From a phage, in sequence record PZ445442.1: a stretch of 64,000 nucleotides of DNA. The stretch is one strand, 5' to 3'. Position numbers and translations under genes: made by a program. Below, in pieces: positions 2,379 to 32,399 of this stretch. The notes under the pieces are model-generated. The model searched no databases, was not told where the DNA came from, and was given only the letters and a program-made list of their open reading frames with translations. Position 1 is the first letter of the stretch. Every line of letters begins with the position of its first letter.

Positions 2379-3140
2379 TTGAAATTTATCTACAAAGAAC
2401 ACTACCACAAAGGTGTTGTGTGGAGTCTATTTGACGGGTCTGGTGGTGCAGTCATTGACTGGGCAAAAGCTGGGTACCTGTGCCTGTGCTTTAATGCAGA
2501 AGGCGCTGATCACGGCAGTTATGCAGAGGTGATCACCGATCATCCCAACATTCACTATGTGGACTATTGGATTGACCCGTGGTTCCCTCAGGAAACTTTT
2601 TGCATGTATCCGGCTCCAGATTTTATTCTTGCATTTCCTCCGTGCACGCATTTAGCGGTATCAGGTGCTGCACATTTTAAGAAAAAGCTGGCTAAGGACC
2701 CCATGATCCAAATTAATGCTGTAAAGGATGCTCGGGTTGCGGAAGAGCTGGGAGAGATTTACGATTGCCCGTGGCATGTAGAGAATCCTGTGGGTGTTAT
2801 GTCCACACTGTGGCGCAAACCTGATTACCGTTTTCACCCTTCGGATTATGGCGGGTATTTACCGGAAGATGATGTAAACCCATGGTTTCCTGAATTTATA
2901 GCTCCACGTGATGCCTATCCAAAAATAACTTGCGGCTGGATAGGTAATGGATTTATAATCCCAGCCACAAAACCTGTCCCGCAAATAGTTGACGCGGTTA
3001 GTGGGTACTCCATGCAACACGCTAAGCTGGGTGGAAAGAGTGCAAGAACGAAGATGATCCGAAGCCTCACACCACGTGGCTGGGCAAAAGCTGTATTCTT
3101 AGCAAACGAGCCTGTAGTAAGGAGAAGGGCCAATGGTTGA
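2379..3140 (+). CDS. putative DNA (cytosine-5)-methyltransferase-like protein
   Basis: Track ORF 2349..3140 re-started at TTG 2379 (AGGAG SD at 2365-2369; the GTG at 2349 lies inside the terminator hairpin). Motifs resembling C5-MTase I (LFDGSGGA), IV (FPPCTHLAVSG) and VI (HVENPVG) in the right order; protein is short for this family. Confidence 0.4.
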   Translation: MKFIYKEHYHKGVVWSLFDGSGGAVIDWAKAGYLCLCFNAEGADHGSYAEVITDHPNIHYVDYWIDPWFPQETFCMYPAPDFILAFPPCTHLAVSGAAHFKKKLAKDPMIQINAVKDARVAEELGEIYDCPWHVENPVGVMSTLWRKPDYRFHPSDYGGYLPEDDVNPWFPEFIAPRDAYPKITCGWIGNGFIIPATKPVPQIVDAVSGYSMQHAKLGGKSARTKMIRSLTPRGWAKAVFLANEPVVRRRANG

Positions 3141-5930: not shown

Positions 5931-8354
5931 ATGAGTATGTGGTCGTTCGATTTTGAGTCATCCGGTTTGCTGGAAGACCCAGATCTTTATTATCACTGCG
6001 GTCTGTTTAAAGAGCTGAATAAGAACCGTTTTATGCTGTTCCTTCCTCTAAATGACCGCACACACTACTCCGAGGAGGATATAGAAAAGGCTAAGAACTT
6101 CATTCTGGCAAAGAAAACTCTTTATAAAGATTTTGAAGTTCGCATAGCAGATTTTTCGGAGTTGGAAGGTTGGCTTACAGGCAATTCTGACTGGTCACCA
6201 ACAGCTTTGAACTGCCATAACTGCTACAGTTATGACTTTATGCTGATGGAAAGATTATCCGGTATTCATTTTGATATGTTCCGTGATCCTAAATGCATGG
6301 GGACTATCAACGATCACCAGGTTAACCTGTTTGATACGTTGGCGATGAGCCGAATCTTGTGGCCTGATCGCCCTTTACCAAAAGGTTGTCCGGACTCTGT
6401 ATTCAACCCGGTTACTAAGAAAATGCAGCCTGTTGGTCCCCACGGCCTTATGGCATGGGGCTACGCCCTTGGTAACCAGAAAGTTCAAATTGATGACTGG
6501 CGCGATCTTCCGTTGTGGAAGTATGTGGATCGTGTATTCGAGGACGTTATCATCCAGGAGCTGCTCTGGAAAGAGCTGGTAGCGGAATCAAAAGGTGTAT
6601 TCTACGGCAAATCTGACATGCAGAACTTTATGTACGATCCTGCCAAAGAGAAGCCGAAAGGGTTCAAGAAGATCACCTGGAAGAACGCATTACGCCGAGG
6701 CATGCTGCAGCACTTCCTGATGGAGCTGCAGGCCCGTCAGGGTGTGTATTTTGACATAGATGGAGCTATTGCTTTACGTGACCGTTGCGATGCGTGGATG
6801 AAAGAAATCGCTGATCGTGTTGAACCACAACTACCTTTAAAAGAGTTGTCAATGTCTCAGCGGCCCAAGTTCCCTGAAAAGCCGTTTAACCAAGATGGGA
6901 CAATCTCCAATAATGGTTGGAAATGGTTAAAAGATAAGCTTGGCTATCCTGTAGATATGAGCGCTTTAGAGTTCAAAGCCCCGCCTAAGCGAGCATTTAC
7001 CTCCACAGGGGATGTCAGCAAGATGGGGATAAAATGGTGTGAAGAGATGGGCTGCAAAGACCCTGATAAGATGGCTGATTTCTTGAGAGGCTATATTAAG
7101 GGCACTTCCACACCACAACCTTTACCTAAAGAGCTGATGGATCAGGCAATAAGTGATCTGCAGCAGAAGCGAATGCCTGACTGCAAGATACCTATGAAAA
7201 TCAGCAATCAGGACGACATTAAGCGGTATCTGATCAGTGCTGGCTGGCTCCCGACGATGTGGAGAACTAAGGATGTAACTAAAGACAGCAAGAAGAAAGC
7301 CCTACCTGATGCAGATGTTGATGCACGAGTATATGCATATATGGACGAGCTTTTAGAGTCAGAGTATTGTGATCTGATTATCAACTTCTGGAACAAAACT
7401 GATGCTAAGTTCCAGACAACCGTGCACAAGTTCCGAAGCTTTCCTAACTCCGAAAGGATTAAAAAGGAAGTATTCGGGAAAATACGTAGAAAAGCTAGGG
7501 CACTTATTACTTCTCCGCAACTGAAAGATACGTTTGGACACCTATGCCCGAATCTTGAAAAATTGAACGGAGAGATGGCTAAAGATATCGTCTTGTGGTT
7601 ATCTTTGCGAAACCGCAGATCGGTACTTGATCCAATCAAGGAGGATAAGGTTGATACTGGTCTTCTTAATCACCCACGTTTGAAGATTGACCATAAGCTT
7701 CCTGCTAAAAGCTCTGGATTAACAAACACTTCCAGACAGAAACACAGTATTTGTGCAAACATGCCTAAACCATCTCCTAAAGTGGTCATGGGTAAAGAGA
7801 TGCGTAGTCTGTGGGGTGTTCCTCCAGGATACTTTGAGATCGGTATTGACGGGTCCAACTTAGAGCAGCTTATCGGGGCTTGGGGTGCCTTTGAGTTCGA
7901 CAACGGATTGTATTATGATGTTGTAAGTAACGGGGACGCACACCAAAACAATGCTGAAGCATATACAAAAGTGGCAGGCAGAGAGGTGTCTCGTAACGAC
8001 GGTAAACCTATCACGTATGGGGTTATGTATGGGGCACAAAAAGATAAAGTTGCAGATATGCTGGACATCTCTCCAGAACTGGGGCAGAGAGTAATTGATG
8101 CTCTCTGGGATGCCAACCCAGGTCTTAAGGGGCGCAAAGAGGATCTGGAGAAATTCTGGGAAGCAACAGGTAAGAAATTTATCTACTCTTTTGACGGGCA
8201 TGCCATTTGGACCCGCTCTAAACACTCTTTGCTTAATGCATATCAGCAAAATGGCGGTGCATCGTTGTGCGACTTGGTCGGAATCCTCATGCACCACCAA
8301 ATGGTGAAGCGTGGATGGTATGATGAAGGTGTTCGTCGTATTATTTATTACCAT
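5931..8354 (+). CDS. DNA polymerase, family A, exon 1 (3'-5' exo + pol motifs A and B)
   Basis: Exo I FDFESSG at N-terminus; motif A-like GIDGSNLEQL; motif B KPITYGVMYGAQ; ORF halts at ...RRIIYYH just before motif C. Exon ends on T8354 (group I 5' splice-site U). Confidence 0.85.
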
Positions 8355-9196
8355 AAATAACATTGTGGCTTCGTGCAGTGATGCACGTCGAAAACCTCTT
8401 TAATTGACGGGAAGGCTAAGTTGACTTTTACACCTAAACATGGTAAAAGCTCAATATGCTAATCCGCAGCGAAGACTAAAGGGGTGTAGTTAAAATGGCT
8501 AGATCAGTTGATTATCACGGATATACCGTGTTTGATGATGGAACAATACCTTTATCGAAACGTGATCATACAACAATGTTCTGTTTTGATAATGGTCGAG
8601 GTTACCTTTGCGTAACCATGTTCATCGAGGGGAAGCAGTGCACAAAAGGTGTCCACCACTTGGTTGCTGAATGCTTTGTATCAAACCCTGATCCTGAAAG
8701 GCTCACATGGGTGAACCATAAGGACGGAAACAAATACAACAATGCATACTGGAACCTTGAATGGACCACCCCTGGTGGAAATATCAAACACGCTTATGAT
8801 AATGACCTCAGAGTAAGGCCAGTCGGTGAGTATAATGCCAACGCTGTACTGACCGAGGATGAGGTAACGGAGATTTGCGAACTGTTACAAAGTGGTTTAC
8901 GACAATGCGAGATTAGGGATCTTGGGTATCCTTATGAGACGGTCAGAGCCATAAAGCAAAGAAGACAGTGGAAACATATCTCTAAAAACTACACCTGGTA
9001 GTAACGTTCAGAGACTATCGAAAGCATAGCGCCAACATAAATTGGTGCGAAGAAGCGAGTAGAGTAGGCCAGCAAGTGCGGTCGAAATGGGAGGTGCCTT
9101 GGTAACAAGGTAGTGAGATAGTCCGATCCATACAGGAAACTGTATGGCTGTGCACGTAATGGTGCGGGGTAGCTTAACGACCTACCTGAACTATTG
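8355..9196 (+). mobile_element. group I self-splicing intron in DNA polymerase gene (contains HNH ORF)
   Basis: P1: exon CCAT (8351-8354) pairs with intron GTGG (8365-8368) giving the U-G splice-site wobble; P7 strands CAGAGACTA (about 9009-9017) and GAGATAGTCCG (about 9115-9125); intron ends in G9196; splicing restores motif C (...YYH|DEYQLQV). Confidence 0.7.
8495..9001 (+). CDS. intron-encoded HNH homing endonuclease
   Basis: Track ORF; HLVAECFVSNPDPERLTWVNHKDGNKYNNAYWNLEW HNH_3-like signature; located between P6-region and P7 of the intron. Confidence 0.75.
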   Translation: MARSVDYHGYTVFDDGTIPLSKRDHTTMFCFDNGRGYLCVTMFIEGKQCTKGVHHLVAECFVSNPDPERLTWVNHKDGNKYNNAYWNLEWTTPGGNIKHAYDNDLRVRPVGEYNANAVLTEDEVTEICELLQSGLRQCEIRDLGYPYETVRAIKQRRQWKHISKNYTW

Positions 9197-9550
9197 GATG
9201 AGTACCAACTTCAAGTGCCTGACACACCTAAGTATAAAACCGTATACACCTTCGACACAATTGAAGAGCTGGAAACATTTAAGGCCAAGCAGGAGGCTAA
9301 ACTTCATGTGTTCGACGGTCATAAGTACAAAAAGGCACGCAAGGATGAGGATGGAAACGAAGTGGTTGACAAGGACGGAAATACGGTGTACGATCCTATC
9401 CTGAACGATGACGGAAAGCTTGAACTTATCTGGAGCCCTGTGGGTGAAATGGTGGTGCATTGCTTCTGGCAAGCTTCTAAAATGATGGGAGTCCCGTTCC
9501 AGATCACAGGTGAATACTTGTGTGGTCGTAATTGGGGTGATTGTCACTAA
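9197..9550 (+). CDS. DNA polymerase, family A, exon 2 (motif C and C-terminus)
   Basis: Begins DEYQLQV (motif C HDE after splicing) and ends ...GRNWGDCH, resembling the C-terminal tail of family-A polymerases. Confidence 0.75.
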   Translation, partial: DEYQLQVPDTPKYKTVYTFDTIEELETFKAKQEAKLHVFDGHKYKKARKDEDGNEVVDKDGNTVYDPILNDDGKLELIWSPVGEMVVHCFWQASKMMGVPFQITGEYLCGRNWGDCH

Positions 9551-18136: not shown

Positions 18137-18740
18137 TACTTGAAAATTCCTGGCATATCAAGTATAAGGGGGATTTCTAAAATGGATTTCCTCCTTTTGA
18201 TATTTCACCGGGCTGGATATTTTAAAATTCTTAGAAAATCAGAAAATGGATCGAAAACTAAAATGGATTTTTCAGAGTAGGCGCGACAAGCTGAATAGCT
18301 CATCCTATCGTTTGCACCATATTCCAGACCACCATTATAGATTTCCCACACATGCTAACCTCCCTCTACTAGAACTTCCTCCACTTACCCTTGACCTTCT
18401 ATGGTAACAATCTAACCACTATCTTGAAGTTGCGGTGCAGCTTTCCAGGTACTCGATCTACTTTTCATTTCAGGGCTTGGATTTTCTGAAAATTTTTCTC
18501 GATAAATTTCTCAGTACTCGATCTGTTTTTCGTTTTCTGAATCGGATTTTCTGGAAATCGTTCCGGATCTCGACCTGAAATTTTTGGGGACGAAATCTAT
18601 TTTTCGTTTTCAGAAATGGATTTTTAAAATTTCTATATGGGAATATTTTATGGGGCACTGTTTTATAGGAAATTGTTACGGAGGGTAATTAGCATGCTAA
18701 TTAAATTTATTAAATGCGAGGGATTCTTATTTAGAATTTT
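18137..18740. repeat. non-coding region with iteron-like direct repeats and palindromes
   Basis: Repeated AAATGGAT boxes (about 18181, 18244, 18260, 18612); degenerate 65-75 bp direct repeats starting GTACTCGATCT (about 18449 and 18514) containing GATTTTCTG(A/G)AAAT and TTTTCGTTTTC; 18-bp perfect palindrome TAATTAGCATGCTAATTA (about 18687-18704); inverted repeat ATACTTGA/TCAAGTAT near 18136-18165. Confidence 0.5.
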
Positions 18741-18769
18741 GAATGATAATTATTCTCGTTTGCAGAATA

Positions 18770-18960
18770 ACGGGCAGGCCCGGTGATTGTCTCCCGGCCC
18801 CTGCTGCCCCGGCTTGTTATTATAGTATCACACAGGACAAAGAAGGCAAGGATTTTTTGCATAAATTTTTAAATGATAATGATAACCGTTCTCATTTTAT
18901 GAAGCGCCCATCCCCGGTGGTTGTCTCCCCCGTCACCGGTGCCTGCCGTCCTTTCGATAG
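18770..18960 (+). repeat. two copies of a GC-rich stem-loop element (core GGTG(A/G)TTGTCTCC); third inverted copy at about 28343-28392
   Basis: GGCAGGCCCGGTGATTGTCTCC at about 18776 and CCGGTGGTTGTCTCCC...GGTGCCTGCCGT at about 18916; the reverse complement of both halves occurs at about 28343-28392. CCTGGCGGGG boxes at about 18973, 19040, 19227. Confidence 0.45.
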
Positions 18961-19358
18961 GTATATTATGCCGCCTGGCGGGGCCGCTGTCAACACTTTT
19001 CAAAAAATTTTTCTAACCTGATGCGCTAACCGTTGCAACCTGGCGGGGCCAGCCTGGCAGGTCCGCACTATAAAGTAAACAGCTACAGAAGAGGTACAAA
19101 AATGAAAGGTAATGCTACTCGCCTGGGAAATGTAGTGATTAATGATACGGAAGCTATCGCCCTGGTTGAAAAGGTTATGGCGGGAGCGTTGGAACATAAA
19201 GAAGAGTACGAAAAAAATGGTGGTTAACCTGGCGGGGGGCGGCAGGTGGATTCTATCATAAAAATAATTTAAAATAGTCGTTGACAACAAGGTTAATCAT
19301 GGTATTATTACCCTACAAGGTGAACAACACCGCACTAACCAGTAAAGAGGATAAATTT

Positions 19359-19556
19359 ATGAACGCATACGGGATCAAAGTACGTCGCAACACTCGCCAG
19401 GTGGTCACCAATCAAGTGATTTGCCGGGTGGATGTAACCATCAACAACGGGCAAGGCCTTTATAAATTTCGTCGCGGCCATAGCTATACCCTGCAACAGC
19501 TTAATCGTTGCGCCCTGACAAAAGGTCAGATCAACCACTGGTTTAATAAAAAATAA
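19359..19556 (+). CDS. hypothetical protein
   Basis: Track ORF 19281..19556 trimmed to ATG after AAAGAGGA SD; the track start is the TTG of an upstream TTGACA promoter hexamer. Confidence 0.5.
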   Translation: MNAYGIKVRRNTRQVVTNQVICRVDVTINNGQGLYKFRRGHSYTLQQLNRCALTKGQINHWFNKK

Positions 19557-28284: not shown

Positions 28285-28300
28285 TCCTTATAAACTACAA

Positions 28301-28329
28301 AACAGGGCTTGCAATGGTCCTGTTTTTTG
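28301..28329 (+). terminator. rho-independent terminator
   Basis: AACAGG-GCTTGCAATGGT-CCTGTT stem followed by TTTTG. Confidence 0.5.
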
Positions 28330-28495
28330 TTATACTTGTTTCACGGCAGGCACCTGGCGACGGGTGGAGACAATCACCGGGCCTGCCTGTCATATAAGAA
28401 CTATAAAAACCGTTGACATCTGCCAGGTGGTGGGGTAACATTTATCTTGAAGGGGCAAAAGTGCCCACACAACAACCAGAAGAGAGGAAAACATT

Positions 28496-28768
28496 ATGTC
28501 AAGCTGGATTAATCAAGAAGTCGAATCACGTTTTAATGCTATTTGGGATCTCATCGAAAAAGAGGACGGAACATCAAGCCCTTATCTCAATAATCTTGAA
28601 TTCCATTTCGTGGAAGCGATGAACGCAGAACATGATCACGAAGGTGGTGCGGATGAGTTCGCTAAAGGGTATGGCTTCAACAATGCCAACGAAATGATCG
28701 AGGCGGTTGTACTCCAGGCTGAGGAAGATTATCAATTAAAAACGCTTGAATTCTGCCGCCGTAAGTAA
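28496..28768 (+). CDS. hypothetical protein
   Basis: Track ORF; TTGACA..TAACAT promoter-like element, GGGGCAAAAGTGCCC leader hairpin, AGAGAGGAAAA SD. Confidence 0.55.
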   Translation: MSSWINQEVESRFNAIWDLIEKEDGTSSPYLNNLEFHFVEAMNAEHDHEGGADEFAKGYGFNNANEMIEAVVLQAEEDYQLKTLEFCRRK

Positions 28769-29953: not shown

Positions 29954-29971
29954 TTTTTTAACTGAATTATC

Positions 29972-29997
29972 AAGGGGCTTAGGCCCCTTTCTTTTTG
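29972..29997 (+). terminator. rho-independent terminator ending the rightward block
   Basis: AAGGGGC-TTAG-GCCCCTT stem followed by TCTTTTTG. Confidence 0.55.
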
Positions 29998-30599
29998 TCT
30001 GCTCTTCCCCCTACCATAAACGGCCCTACCTGGCAAGTGGAATAATTGACGAGCCATCAATCCCACACACTGTACAAACATACATATAAAATAACTATTG
30101 CATAATTTTTCATTGTGTGGTAGCAGGGCCATTTTTACACATTTTTCCTTCCAAAATTGCACGTAATGCAGCATTTGCACAAAATTTAACCTGATGCATA
30201 TATTCAATAGCTTGTCAACAACTAAAAATCTTTATAAGTCATACACTTACATAACTACAAAAGCGTTTTCTACGTGAAAAATCGAGTATAACTATAGCCG
30301 CCAGATCTCAGAATTTACGTACGCTCGCCATTCTATAGCCTGCTAAGCATTTATTCCAACCATAGAATAACGGAATAGTCAATACCTGCATAAAATAATT
30401 ATTCGTGTAAACTGCATAACATAAATCGGCCCAGGTGTCAACATTTTTCGTAAACAGTCTGGAATTGTCACGTTAGGTTACCATAAGCAGAGAAATCTTT
30501 AGTCGTCTAATGTTTACTGTACGTTACTATATTAACTGAAATCATTAGATGACTAATAGAAAGATAAGAAATAATTAACAATACAATTATTTTATCTGT

Positions 30600-30960
30600 A
30601 ACAATAAGGCAACTATGCAAACGAATGGCATGGCGCGACGGAGTCGCGACATAATATAAAAGCAGTAACCATCACCCCCGTGATAGTTTGTCTGCAAACT
30701 ATTAATCAGATCATAGTTGCCTTGTATTTAGTTAATCATGACATAACAAGCAAGGCAACTATAGATCTTCTAATAGTTGCCCTGCTTTTATATTATGTCA
30801 TAAATTATTAACATGCAAACGAATGGCATGGCTTATAATTTTTGAGAAAATAGTCTATACGTGAACAGTAAGGCATGCAATAGTAACAATTGTTATTGTA
30901 TCCAGTGTGTTGAGTATGCCCAGTATGTCACCATTGTGTCCAGTATGTCAGACAAGTTTT
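30600..30960. repeat. cluster of inverted and direct repeats in the convergent non-coding region
   Basis: 9-bp site GGCAACTAT at about 30608 and 30754, its complement ATAGTTGCC at about 30713 and 30773; 19-bp direct repeat TGCAAACGAATGGCATGGC at about 30616 and 30814; 18-bp inverted pair GACATAATATAAAAGCAG (about 30648) / CTGCTTTTATATTATGTC (about 30782); CCAGTATGTCA x2 at about 30920-30950. Confidence 0.5.
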
Positions 30961-32399
30961 CCTCCTCTTTGTCAAGTGCTGCATGAAAAATTTACAAACT
31001 GGTATGGTAGCATTTTTGCGGCCCTGTTTACATTCAGTAATGTATGTATAATCCTTGTTGTGTGGGCGTTTAGACGTCTAGACGGTTGGAAGTCTACAGG
31101 TCAATATCTAATCTATTGGCTGCTAACTATATCCCACACAAATAGTAAGAAATATGATTGTTATATGCGTAAACTGTAACTCATGTTATCAATCCCTGTA
31201 TGTATCACCAGTGGTGCGCATAATGGGTATTATGTTAAATTGCCCGTAATGATAACTATTCTCACAATGATAGGTATTCTCATTCACCCCAACAAAATAG
31301 GTTGCAAATGTTGTGCCACTGTGTGAACGGCCTCACCTATTAATTTGCCTCACTGCCTCGATATTTGAGAATTATTATAAAAATGAGAAGTATTCCCATT
31401 CCGTCCGCCTGGCAGCACTCCAGTCGCTACGGCTCCTGACAGGGCAGCACTCCTGTAGGTCAGGTCAAAATCGGGGTAGAACTGGACCTGTTCAGATATT
31501 TCTGGCTGACTCTTCAGGTCTGTGTGGGAAAAGCCAACCTCTCCGGCGGGGCAGGGGAGGTAAATTAAAAAATTTACGTGGTGTATGAAGAGCCCTTCAG
31601 GTAAGGCATGTATTATAGGATGAAACCCTCTTCAGGCATGATATTTGTGGGTGTGATATTTGCTGGAAAGCCAGATATGACGGGACTCCCGGCGGGGCAG
31701 GGGTAGTACAGACGGGGAAATATGGGGATGTAGTTGGGGAAATTGATCAGGCAGGTGGGGTATAGGATATGTTACAAGTATGTTAAATATGGAGGTTGAA
31801 TATCTGTAGGATTTGTGTGTAAAATCAAAGACTTAAGTGGTGTTGTGGTATTTTCTATAAATAATTCAAGTTTAATAGGTAATATTTGCCTCTATCCACT
31901 TTGTGTGGTAAACAGATTCAGATGAGATTAGTTTACAAGTGTATACATAATATACAAATTAAAGATACAGGAAACCCCCCTCCCCCTTCGGCTACCATTC
32001 ACCTTTTCCTCTGACTGGTACTTAAACACTTATTCAGACTCTTCAGGTTATCACCCATATATCATATGGCAGTGACTGGTGTCCTCCGGCCCCTCTTTCG
32101 TCACCCGTCCGCTTCGCCATGCTAATGCCATAGCCAAAGGTTCGGTTGTTCACCCTGTTCACTCAGGTGTATCTCCATACCCCTTCAAACCGAAGAGAAC
32201 AGAAAACCCGAATTACTCGGTAAAAGAAAAGAGAAGAACTTAATTTTATCAGGATAGGCAAGAATGTCAAGGCATGACTGCTCACTAAACAAGCAAACAG
32301 TCATGTGTGGGAGGTAAGTGATTGTGGTGGTGGGAAATTTAGTTGAAAGATGTGTTATAGGTGCGCTTCCAGCACTTTAGCCGGGCAGCTAATTGTGTG

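Follow-up and report, generated by a model that had tools for sequence, protein, structure and literature searches.

The 64,000-nucleotide stretch of DNA analysed here (the window) belongs to Escherichia phage EmilHeitz (Bas49, MZ501062.1), an rV5-like Vequintavirus, with window positions equal to record positions minus 64,682. Three copies of a short GC-rich element, termed A, B and C, lie within it and share the conserved primary sequence GAGACAAnCACC(G)G. The explanation tentatively preferred here is that the copies are paralogous promoter-leader cassettes, in which the element would be the transcribed leader. An initial annotation of the window had described the copies as a conserved stem-loop accompanied by three CCTGGCGGGG boxes. 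The observation itself is real and not an artefact; the stem-loop description fits one copy of the three, and the third box is spurious.

Copy number and origin of the element

The core GGTG(A/G)TTGTCTCC was found exactly at the three sites listed by the initial annotation, namely 18782-18794 (copy A) and 18916-18928 (copy B) on the plus strand and 28366-28378 (copy C) on the minus strand, and the 64-kb window contains no fourth exact copy. By our own arithmetic an exact 13-mer is expected about 0.004 times by chance in 2 x 64 kb. The whole genome (139,980 bp) was rebuilt from the record and scanned both with a regular expression and with a profile hidden Markov model (HMM) built from 32 instances. 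Both scans returned exactly three copies of the core, with HMM E-values of 1e-9, 5e-9 and 5e-6, and the next match had an E-value of 3.4. When read as GGAGACAAYCACCGG, the element of copy C lies on the plus strand and those of copies A and B on the minus strand.

Copy A (18771..18812), whose minus strand reads GGGGCAGCAGGGGCCGGGAGACAATCACCGGGCCTGCCCG, is the ancestral, orthologous copy. Copy B (18905..18949; minus strand ACGGCAGGCACCGGTGACGGGGGAGACAACCACCGGGGATGGGCG) is part of a diverged tandem duplicate of about 134 bp, with a repeat spacing of 134, that takes in promoter, element and Fur box of unit A; this duplication is specific to Vequintavirus. Copy C (28343..28391, plus strand) starts at a predicted transcription start and consists of the 5' half of B followed by the 3' half of A. 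It had been described as the reverse complement of both halves, and indeed its reverse complement corresponds to the left half of A, with 22 identical nt, joined to the right half of B. This arrangement makes copy C an A/B chimera that has been inverted and lies on the gene strand, with a terminator on one side and an early promoter on the other.

The genomic setting given for the copies was also borne out, with A and B in a non-coding gap that heads a block of small genes and C at a terminator/promoter junction. Genes in the window lie on the plus strand up to approximately 30 kb and on the minus strand from approximately 32.4 kb. Copies A and B lie in some 700 bp without a credible gene (18408-19101), flanked on one side by replication and other genes (primase/helicase, DNA polymerase) and on the other by an ∼ 11-kb block of about 40 small early genes, each with a consensus sigma70 promoter. 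The initial annotation missed the minus-strand orientation of A and B, the flanking promoters, and the Fur-box-like and iteron-like context.

Derivation from a host element, or mimicry of one, was considered and rejected. Among 185,579 species-representative genomes the core 17-mer was absent from Enterobacterales and gave 48 matches in scattered, unrelated taxa, compared with approximately 70 expected by chance in 596 Gb (own arithmetic). Its absence from Enterobacterales genomes indicates that the core was not copied from a host site. E. coli genomes matched the Fur-box part alone, and weakly.

Predicted promoters upstream of the element

The best sigma70-like match (scored out of 12) was recorded in the 60 nt upstream of the core, on the GGAGACAA strand, for 27 distinct instances of the element from this and related genomes. 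The mean score was 9.15/12, and 20 of the 27 instances scored 9 or more, compared with 4.8% of random 60-nt windows. The distance from the end of the -10 sequence to the core is 23-37 nt, and the orientation of the element relative to its nearest promoter is the same in all instances (27/27). A binding site, an RNA processing site and a small structured RNA had all been offered as initial interpretations. Since almost all instances have a promoter upstream at a short and fixed distance, short transcripts are the best supported of these options, the term ‘structured’ holding for copy C alone.

Copy A is preceded on the minus strand by a perfect -10 sequence, TATAAT (18819..18824), which lies 25 nt upstream of the core and gives a predicted start at approximately 18812. 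The predicted promoter of copy B, TTGACA-17-CATAAT (18965..18993, minus strand, 11/12), would start transcription at approximately 18958, 9 nt before the element, and is kept in Gotham, L016 and L027. For copy C, the -35 sequence TTGCAA (28309-28314), a 16-nt spacer and TG-T-TATACT (-10 at 28331-28336), all on the plus strand, predict a start at A28343, which is the first base of the hairpin. Independent promoter scans flagged both TTGACA-17-CATAAT at 18993..18965 and TTGCAA-16-TATACT, with its TG, at 28309..28336. A further candidate promoter, P(+), reads towards copy A on the plus strand. It consists of TTGAAT (18739-18744), an 18-nt spacer containing a Fur box, and CAGAAT (18763-18768), scores 8/12, and is predicted to start transcription where element A has its left base (about 18773-18775).

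The -35 sequence of the C promoter is carried in the loop of an intrinsic terminator (28299-28326, plus strand). In Murica and CM1 (copy C) and in the Klebsiella phage FKP3 (copy A) a different terminator is found; its loop again holds a -35 sequence (TTGACT), and a -10 sequence (TATTCT or TATCCT) comes next, ahead of the element. The promoter design before the element is therefore kept where the sequence has been replaced. A terminator loop holding a -35 sequence (TTGCAA or TTGACT), with the -10 sequence after the T-run, recurs with non-homologous terminators (28299-28336; L103 and L108), so that the signals for termination and re-initiation are superimposed. Beyond copy C lies the early promoter of the next gene, TTGACA-17-TAACAT (28413..28441, plus strand; start codon at 28496), which is annotated as P168 in rV5.

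Conservation of the core

Conservation in related phages, as claimed for the element, proved to be strong. At least 120 Vequintavirus records contain copy C, with identities of 83-100%, and copy A has orthologues in other genera. In distant blastn searches the interval 18730-18797 of the window showed 81-88% identity in Seunavirus, Mydovirus, Certrevirus, Henunavirus and W70, and copy C as query also recovered Serratia phage Kashira and two Stephanstirmvirinae, FKP3 and phiWec181. Copy A with its surroundings is thus represented in at least eight genera of two subfamilies (Vequintavirinae and Stephanstirmvirinae). Sixteen or 17 records named ‘Campylobacter phage’ (among MG065635-MG065672) match this E. 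coli Vequintavirus region at 83-98% identity; they appear to be mislabelled or to come from coliphage contamination.

The 5' half of the element shows free variation between genera, and the invariant part is GAGACAA-n-CACC followed by gGg..TGcc.Gtta. In the EC152 and Mydovirus copies two extra nucleotides are inserted in the core (GAGTACAAAACACC), and in Murica a different gene and terminator stand upstream of an otherwise homologous copy C. The invariant core, the lack of a consensus structure and cross-genus folding z-scores near zero together indicate that a linear motif, and not a stem-loop, is what has been conserved. On this comparison the conserved feature is a linear 12-nt motif, often situated in the apical part of whatever hairpin the flanks allow.

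Pattern scans of IMG/VR and of Joint Genome Institute (JGI) metagenomes found the core, with 6-7 further flanking bases, in low-GC contigs of uncultivated phages (Ga0255090_1000022, Ga0255098_1000234, Ga0255088_1000120/376 and Ga0228700_1000372; L111-L119, also L022 and L033). These contigs showed no nucleotide or protein similarity to the window. Searches on the identity of this lineage gave no blastn match in the phage collection and no PHROG match, and Pfam returned SprT-like and weak M78 matches alone. Three or four copies are present per 13 kb, between small ORFan genes, and each is arranged as a terminator, TGnTATAAT, about 23 nt, GGGGGAGACAAWCACCGG, a T-run and the promoter of the next small gene. 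The promoter-proximal position of the core therefore recurs in an unrelated background, and a 12-nt motif held in common with an unrelated lineage, at the same promoter-proximal position, points to a common reader. The metagenomic cassette is intergenic, about 70 nt long and highly repeated (TGnTATAAT..CAATACCTGAGAACGGGGGAGACAATCACCGGGGCAGCGTGTTTTTCAAATGTAAC), and the gene leaders of these contigs share ATCAAGAC..GGAG..CACC-ATG.

Folding of the elements

An extended hairpin had initially been assigned to each copy, and this assignment stands for C and fails for A and B. Copy C gave folding z-scores of -2.4 and -3.5 on the two strands and -2.8 as trimmed RNA. Copies A (z -0.7 to -1.7) and B (z 0 to -1.3) fold no better than shuffled sequence. 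Nine distinct Vequintavirus variants of C fold well (z -1.5 to -4.7), and RNAalifold analysis of the C type gave 14 pairs, with ten one-sided changes that keep pairing and three broken cells. The C helix in EmilHeitz is interrupted (8+3+4 bp); the variants form 15-19 bp, with up to approximately 17-19 bp in WalterGehring.

Several known classes of element were rejected. The terminator scan reported 28299-28326 and none of A, B, C or the boxes. The elements are followed by CATATAAG, GTTATTCT and CTTCATAA, which contain no T-run, and A, B and C were rejected as intrinsic terminators, which require a hairpin and a T-run. A sigma54 promoter, an ops/RfaH site, a sigma70-dependent pause, a G-quadruplex and a CsrA site were compared by eye with their consensus sequences, and none was consistent across the copies. 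A tRNA remnant was likewise discarded: a Klebsiella phage record annotates a tRNA-Met, but neither the window nor L040-L043 yielded a tRNA with ARAGORN. That record (OY978796.1, 10891-11044; L041:1487-1640) places tRNA-Met, tRNA-Ile and tRNA-Lys over or beside the orthologous element, and ARAGORN does not reproduce them.

The control region around copies A and B

In every genus examined, the region of copy A shows the same order on the element strand. It begins with a promoter (TTGACA/TTGACG/TTGCAA, a 17-18-nt GC-rich spacer, CATAAT/TATATT), followed by a GC-rich block of ∼ 85 nt with a U-rich end, and a second promoter (TTGCAA/TTGATC-16/17-TATATT/TATTAT). The element comes next, then two to five palindromes (AATGA(G/T)AAT-n-ATTC(T/G)CATT), and finally at least three direct repeats of ∼ 65-70 nt with CTCGATC and A/T tracts. 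The ∼ 85-nt block (CGCCACCCCACGGCGAAAAGGCGGGGCUAAC...GGAAGGUGGAUCGCCGG) has a consensus fold with compensatory pairs, one pair being GC in six sequences and AU in five (L040:400-500, L041:1600-1700, L042:1620-1720, L043:1620-1720 (minus); L109:255-350; L110:225-320). It had no match in Rfam and is a candidate for a new phage small RNA. The block is absent from Vequintavirus, including the window, where unit B takes its place. Its own promoter and its compensatory pairs lend independent support to leftward transcription of the region. Annotated minus-strand genes also occur at this region in other genera. A conserved, adjacent minus-strand regulator gene was sought and rejected, as the minus-strand open reading frames (ORFs) on its right share no homology from one genus to another. 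A relationship to the pseudo-ToxI of phage phiTE (GGTGATTTGCTACC-like repeats) was also dropped, the orthologous phiTE locus being without ToxI-like repeats. A tandem GTAAA-N5-GTAAA (e.g. TTTGTAAAGAATTGTAAAGACGC), which matches the CpxR box consensus, stands just upstream of the -35 sequence before the element in L041, L042, L043, L046, L048, L049 and L110; the window lacks it.

Conservation between genera is highest in a Fur-box-like 9-1-9 palindrome, AATGATAATTATTCTCGTT (18742..18760). A weaker copy lies at 18713-18731, and unit B has its own palindrome, AATGATAACCGTTCTCATT (18878..18896). With up to three mismatches allowed, six Fur-box-like sites were counted compared with 0.21 expected. 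The 9-1-9 arrays (AATGAKAATnATTCKCATT) are confined to two large non-coding regions of the genome, 18713-18896 and 31248-31400, and the same palindromes, two to five per locus, occur in other Vequintavirinae and in Stephanstirmvirinae. A literature search with the motif strings retrieved only the paper that derived the Xanthomonas Fur-box consensus experimentally, AATGAgAATcATTctCATT. The phage palindromes have the same form as this consensus and as the 9-1-9 Fur boxes of Shewanella and Bacillus (PMC1790865). The arrays suggest iron- and Fur-dependent control, titration of Fur, or a phage repressor with Fur-like specificity, and for these predicted sites a phage-encoded repressor is an equal candidate to Fur.

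To the left of the palindromes, three iteron-like direct repeats of 65-74 nt (GTACTCGATCT...TTTTC..GGATTTTCTGAAAATTTTT) span 18439..18650. The same repeat type (CTCGATC with GTATTTTTTCT and GAAAAAATTTTT) adjoins the element in Seunavirus, Certrevirus, Mydovirus and Kashira (phiTE, SSE121, EC152 and Kashira sequences). These repeats are a candidate origin or protein-binding array. Features of an oriC-like origin were looked for and rejected, no DnaA box, IHF consensus or enrichment of GATC being found here, and GC skew changes with gene orientation alone. The skew search for an origin reported for rV5 found strand switches alone; the same paper maps a ‘non-coding’ box and 33 predicted promoters (PMC3606486).

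The three GC-rich boxes

The sequence CCTGGCGGGG is present exactly at 18974, 19039 and 19228, as initially annotated. With one mismatch allowed there are six matches compared with 1.39 expected, and none of 100 shuffles reached six. Box 1 (18974-18983) forms the GC-rich spacer of the leftward unit B promoter, and this design, TTGACA-(A/G)CGGCCCCGCCAGG-CATAAT, is also found in W70, with related GC-rich spacers in other genera. Box 2 belongs to a module at 19033..19074, made up of TTGCAA (19033-19038), CCTGGCGGGG (19039-19048) and TATAAA (19069-19074). A 14-nt tandem repeat (19034-19050 / 19048-19064), present in all Vequintavirus relatives examined, stretches the spacing between TTGCAA and TATAAA to 30 nt, which is too long for a normal promoter.

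Box 3 cannot be ranked with the other two, since it is not conserved and is coding sequence in relatives. Together with the dyad CCTG...CAGG it lies at 19228..19247, immediately after the stop codon of a small conserved ORF, MKGNATRLGNVVINDTEAIALVEKVMAGALEHKEEYEKNGG (19102..19227, plus strand), which has no annotation in the EmilHeitz record and encodes 41 aa here and 57 aa in Gotham. In Gotham the bases of box 3 read CCTAGCGGGGG and lie inside the 57-aa ORF. The window differs from Gotham by one additional A and one additional G (A7 vs A6, G6 vs G5), and the ORF is thereby truncated to 41 aa; these homopolymer differences could be real indels or sequencing errors. In the preferred explanation boxes 1 and 2 are the spacer, or an adjoining part, of the same TTGACA/TTGCAA promoter family, and box 3 is unrelated.

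All boxes contain CCTGG, and 18951-19250 is the densest CCWGG cluster of the 64-kb window (six per 300 nt vs a mean of 0.6). The phage also encodes a Dcm-like C5 methyltransferase (gene 2379-3140). The cluster and the methyltransferase together are a lead, not a result.

The elements as possible transcribed leaders

In the promoter-leader explanation the promoters would fire, and RNA rather than DNA would be the active form. The element would be the initially transcribed ∼ 45-50 nt of a unit read by host RNA polymerase with a sigma70-type factor, which would place GAGACAAnCACC(G)G at about +17 to +31. The ancestral copy A, in its conserved control region, would be transcribed leftward and antisense to the flanking genes. 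Leftward transcripts of A and B would run through the Fur-box-like operators towards the iteron-like repeats. P(+) would face the leftward start of A at a distance of about 40 nt, and with predicted starts at ∼ 18773 and ∼ 18812 the two transcripts would converge and have ∼ 40 nt in common, corresponding to element A. Copies A and B might then act by transcriptional interference or antisense control of rightward transcription, or by activation or priming at a possible origin. For copy C, a short transcript would arise between the terminator and the early promoter that follows, with a stable hairpin flush with its predicted 5' end; this hairpin may serve as a 5' stabiliser, an attenuator or a processing site.

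Several observations weigh against this explanation. The promoters are consensus matches alone, and the figure of 20/27 overstates independence because the instances are related by descent. In the window the minus-strand promoter of A has a weak -35 sequence (TTGCCT at 19 nt). The key A at position 2 of the P(+) -10 sequence is lost in K45, phiTE and FKP3, which makes that promoter doubtful. None of the nine C variants carries a double compensatory change in the C pairs, RNAalifold gave no consensus structure across genera, and the single-sequence z-scores there are about 0. Rfam gave no match at the gathering score in the window; searching 18300-19400 at E<=10, and three orthologous loci at E<=1, added nothing of relevance. 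The literature searches turned up neither an account of the region and its transcripts nor relevant transcript data for this phage group. Finally, a conserved primary-sequence core with variable flanks fits a protein site on DNA as well as it fits an RNA signal.

A more ambitious version of the leader explanation is speculative and distinctly unlikely. In it, GAGACAAnCACC(G)G would be a hitherto unrecognised promoter-proximal signal for the host transcription or RNA machinery, either for antitermination or pausing or as a tag for stability or processing. It would form the core of a Fur-box-gated, iron-sensing switch that couples leftward transcription to the iteron region, and so to a possible origin, in rV5-like and phAPEC8-like phages. 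Unrelated lineages would have gained the motif independently or through exchange. As a side possibility, the amplified Fur-box arrays may titrate host Fur during replication.

Alternative explanations

The constancy of a primary sequence, as opposed to pairing, is also what a DNA operator would show, and such an operator is possible, if doubtful. Here GAGACAAnCACC with a flanking CCGG..CCGG pseudo-dyad would be bound just downstream of promoters by a phage or host protein, acting as a roadblock or a switch. Copy A would lie between two facing promoters, and boxes 1 and 2 (CCTGGCGGGGCC) would represent a second operator type, possibly methylation-sensitive. The core is partly dyad-symmetric (CCGGTGAT-T-GTCTCCGG, as read from the sequence) and is found facing either way with respect to the genes, the neighbouring Fur-box-like palindromes mark the region as one built of protein sites, and the CCWGG cluster with the phage methyltransferase would suit a methylation-sensitive site. 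However, the 2-nt core insertion of the EC152 and Mydovirus copies would be poorly tolerated by a dimer operator and would be tolerated in a loop, and a symmetric operator does not need the constant orientation to the promoter. No cognate regulator was identified, and the metagenomic lineage shares no detectable protein with the window.

The layout of copy C (stop codon, terminator, GC-rich hairpin, AT-rich stretch and sigma70 promoter) resembles that of the promoter-early stem-loops (PeSLs) of T4-like phages (PMC2839356, PMC4122927). The elements might accordingly be mobile cassettes of this kind, serving as recombination linkers and as terminator or attenuator hairpins in a plastic early region, with the core as a hitch-hiking patch of homology that would itself play no regulatory part. 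The chimeric make-up of C, the tandem duplication of B, the many copies among small ORFan genes in the metagenomic lineage and the exchanged gene and terminator before C in Murica all point this way. We nevertheless consider it unlikely: PeSLs are reported to fill hyperplastic regions densely (PMC2839356), whereas three copies are found here in 140 kb, copy A is fixed across two subfamilies in a control region that is not plastic, no T-run follows the hairpin, and the 12-nt core is conserved far beyond the needs of a homology patch. Cleavage by RNase III or another nuclease, separating or stabilising early mRNAs as in T7, is very unlikely. The site would be C, and possibly a long-range pairing of the B 5' arm with the A 3' arm in the leftward transcript. 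C and its variants do form interrupted helices of 15-19 bp with strong z-scores, and the intergenic position of C on the gene strand means that read-through transcripts would contain it. Against this stand the short, interrupted helix in EmilHeitz, the lack of a helix in A, B and the orthologues of other genera, the lack of a second site of this kind in the whole block of about 40 small genes, and the position of C after a canonical terminator, from which little read-through is expected. That the copies are decaying duplications without present function is highly improbable. Copy B and box 3 look degenerate, and the 14-nt repeat disrupts the spacer of box 2, but two subfamilies and a separate lineage have the core in invariant form, and C is kept at 83-100% identity in at least 120 genomes, with its folding preserved.

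Annotated genes and other features of the window

Four annotated ORFs, bas49_0102, 0103, 0104 and 0131 (18435-18578, 18584-18688, 18743-19021 and 28327-28416), overlie the repeats, operators and elements. A protein-coding explanation for A and B was rejected on the grounds that the bas49_0104 frame, which covers both, varies from 7 to 194 aa across genera and is not conserved. The 29-aa ORF over C is likewise implausible as an explanation of that copy. All four gene calls are probably spurious.

The second region with Fur-box-like sites lies where the plus- and minus-strand gene blocks converge, within ∼ 2.4 kb without annotated genes (29954-32399) that is probably the ‘non-coding’ box of the rV5 map. 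It also holds two CCGGCGGGGCAGGGG repeats (31543 and 31689), an exact 20-nt repeat (30615 and 30813) and other direct repeats, and it gave no Rfam match. Elsewhere in the window, the DNA polymerase gene (5931-9550) is annotated as two joined pieces with a homing endonuclease ORF inside (8495-9001), which suggests an intron or intein-type insertion. Three more putative homing endonucleases are annotated in the window, and one more just past its end in the record.

Significance

Phages of the rV5 type (Vequintavirinae) and of the sister subfamily are widely used candidates for therapy and biocontrol. The non-coding module, conserved in two subfamilies, combines iteron-like repeats and Fur-box-like operators with facing promoters and, for most genera, with the structured ∼ 85-nt RNA candidate; it is a testable candidate for the control region or origin of the group, and several ‘hypothetical protein’ genes annotated over it are probably spurious. 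The Fur-box-like sites suggest an unexpected link to host iron status. Confirmation of the Fur link, of an origin function or of a shared reader for the 12-nt motif would add to the interest of the region.

Relationship to known systems

The element is of a kind already known, that of the phage regulatory cassette, and its conserved control region is not described in the literature searched. The closest layout is that of the PeSLs, in which an intergenic G/C-rich stem-loop and a sigma70-like promoter accompany small, non-essential early genes of T4-like phages (PMC2839356, PMC4122927). PeSLs recur within a genome and among divergent phages, and their copies bear traces of having recombined (Arbiol et al. 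2010, PMC2839356; Comeau et al. 2014, PMC4122927). Their stem-loop serves as a terminator, and recombination or the formation of mini-circles takes place at the cassettes. Copy C, with its terminator, hairpin (z -2.4 to -3.5), AT-rich stretch and TTGACA-17-TAACAT promoter, fits this layout, as does the metagenomic lineage. In contrast to the dozens of PeSL copies, EmilHeitz has three, and the many-copy feature is met in the unrelated metagenomic lineage alone. The element here is also placed downstream of a promoter, as a putative leader, and not just upstream as a terminator, and it has no T-run. Copy A differs further in being fixed in a conserved control region and reading antisense, and the resemblance to T4-type PeSLs is one of layout.

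The palindromes flanking A and B match the 9-1-9 Fur-box consensus at 16-18 of the 18 specified positions and are arranged in arrays, as Fur sites often are. In the present case, however, they are the context and not the reported element, the genome is that of a virulent phage, and the sites are putative ones for Fur or for a phage repressor.

The arrangement at copy A recalls modules with face-to-face promoters or cis-antisense RNAs, such as pR-pL of coliphage 186, RNA I/RNA II of ColE1 and CopA/CopT of R1. The candidate promoters at A face each other with starts approximately 40 nt apart, the overlap is a GC-rich potential stem with an exposed loop, and the locus adjoins iteron-like repeats, as in replicon control regions. 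It differs in that the promoters are candidates, the rightward one being poorly conserved, the stem-loop lacks covariation support, and there is no known initiator gene or origin function here. The processive antitermination function of the HK022 put RNA depends on two conserved stem-loops. The element resembles put in being a short cis-acting sequence within the first tens of nucleotides after a promoter, among phage genes separated by terminators; the resemblance is one of position, and what is conserved here is a linear 12-nt motif, in contrast to the structure conserved in put.

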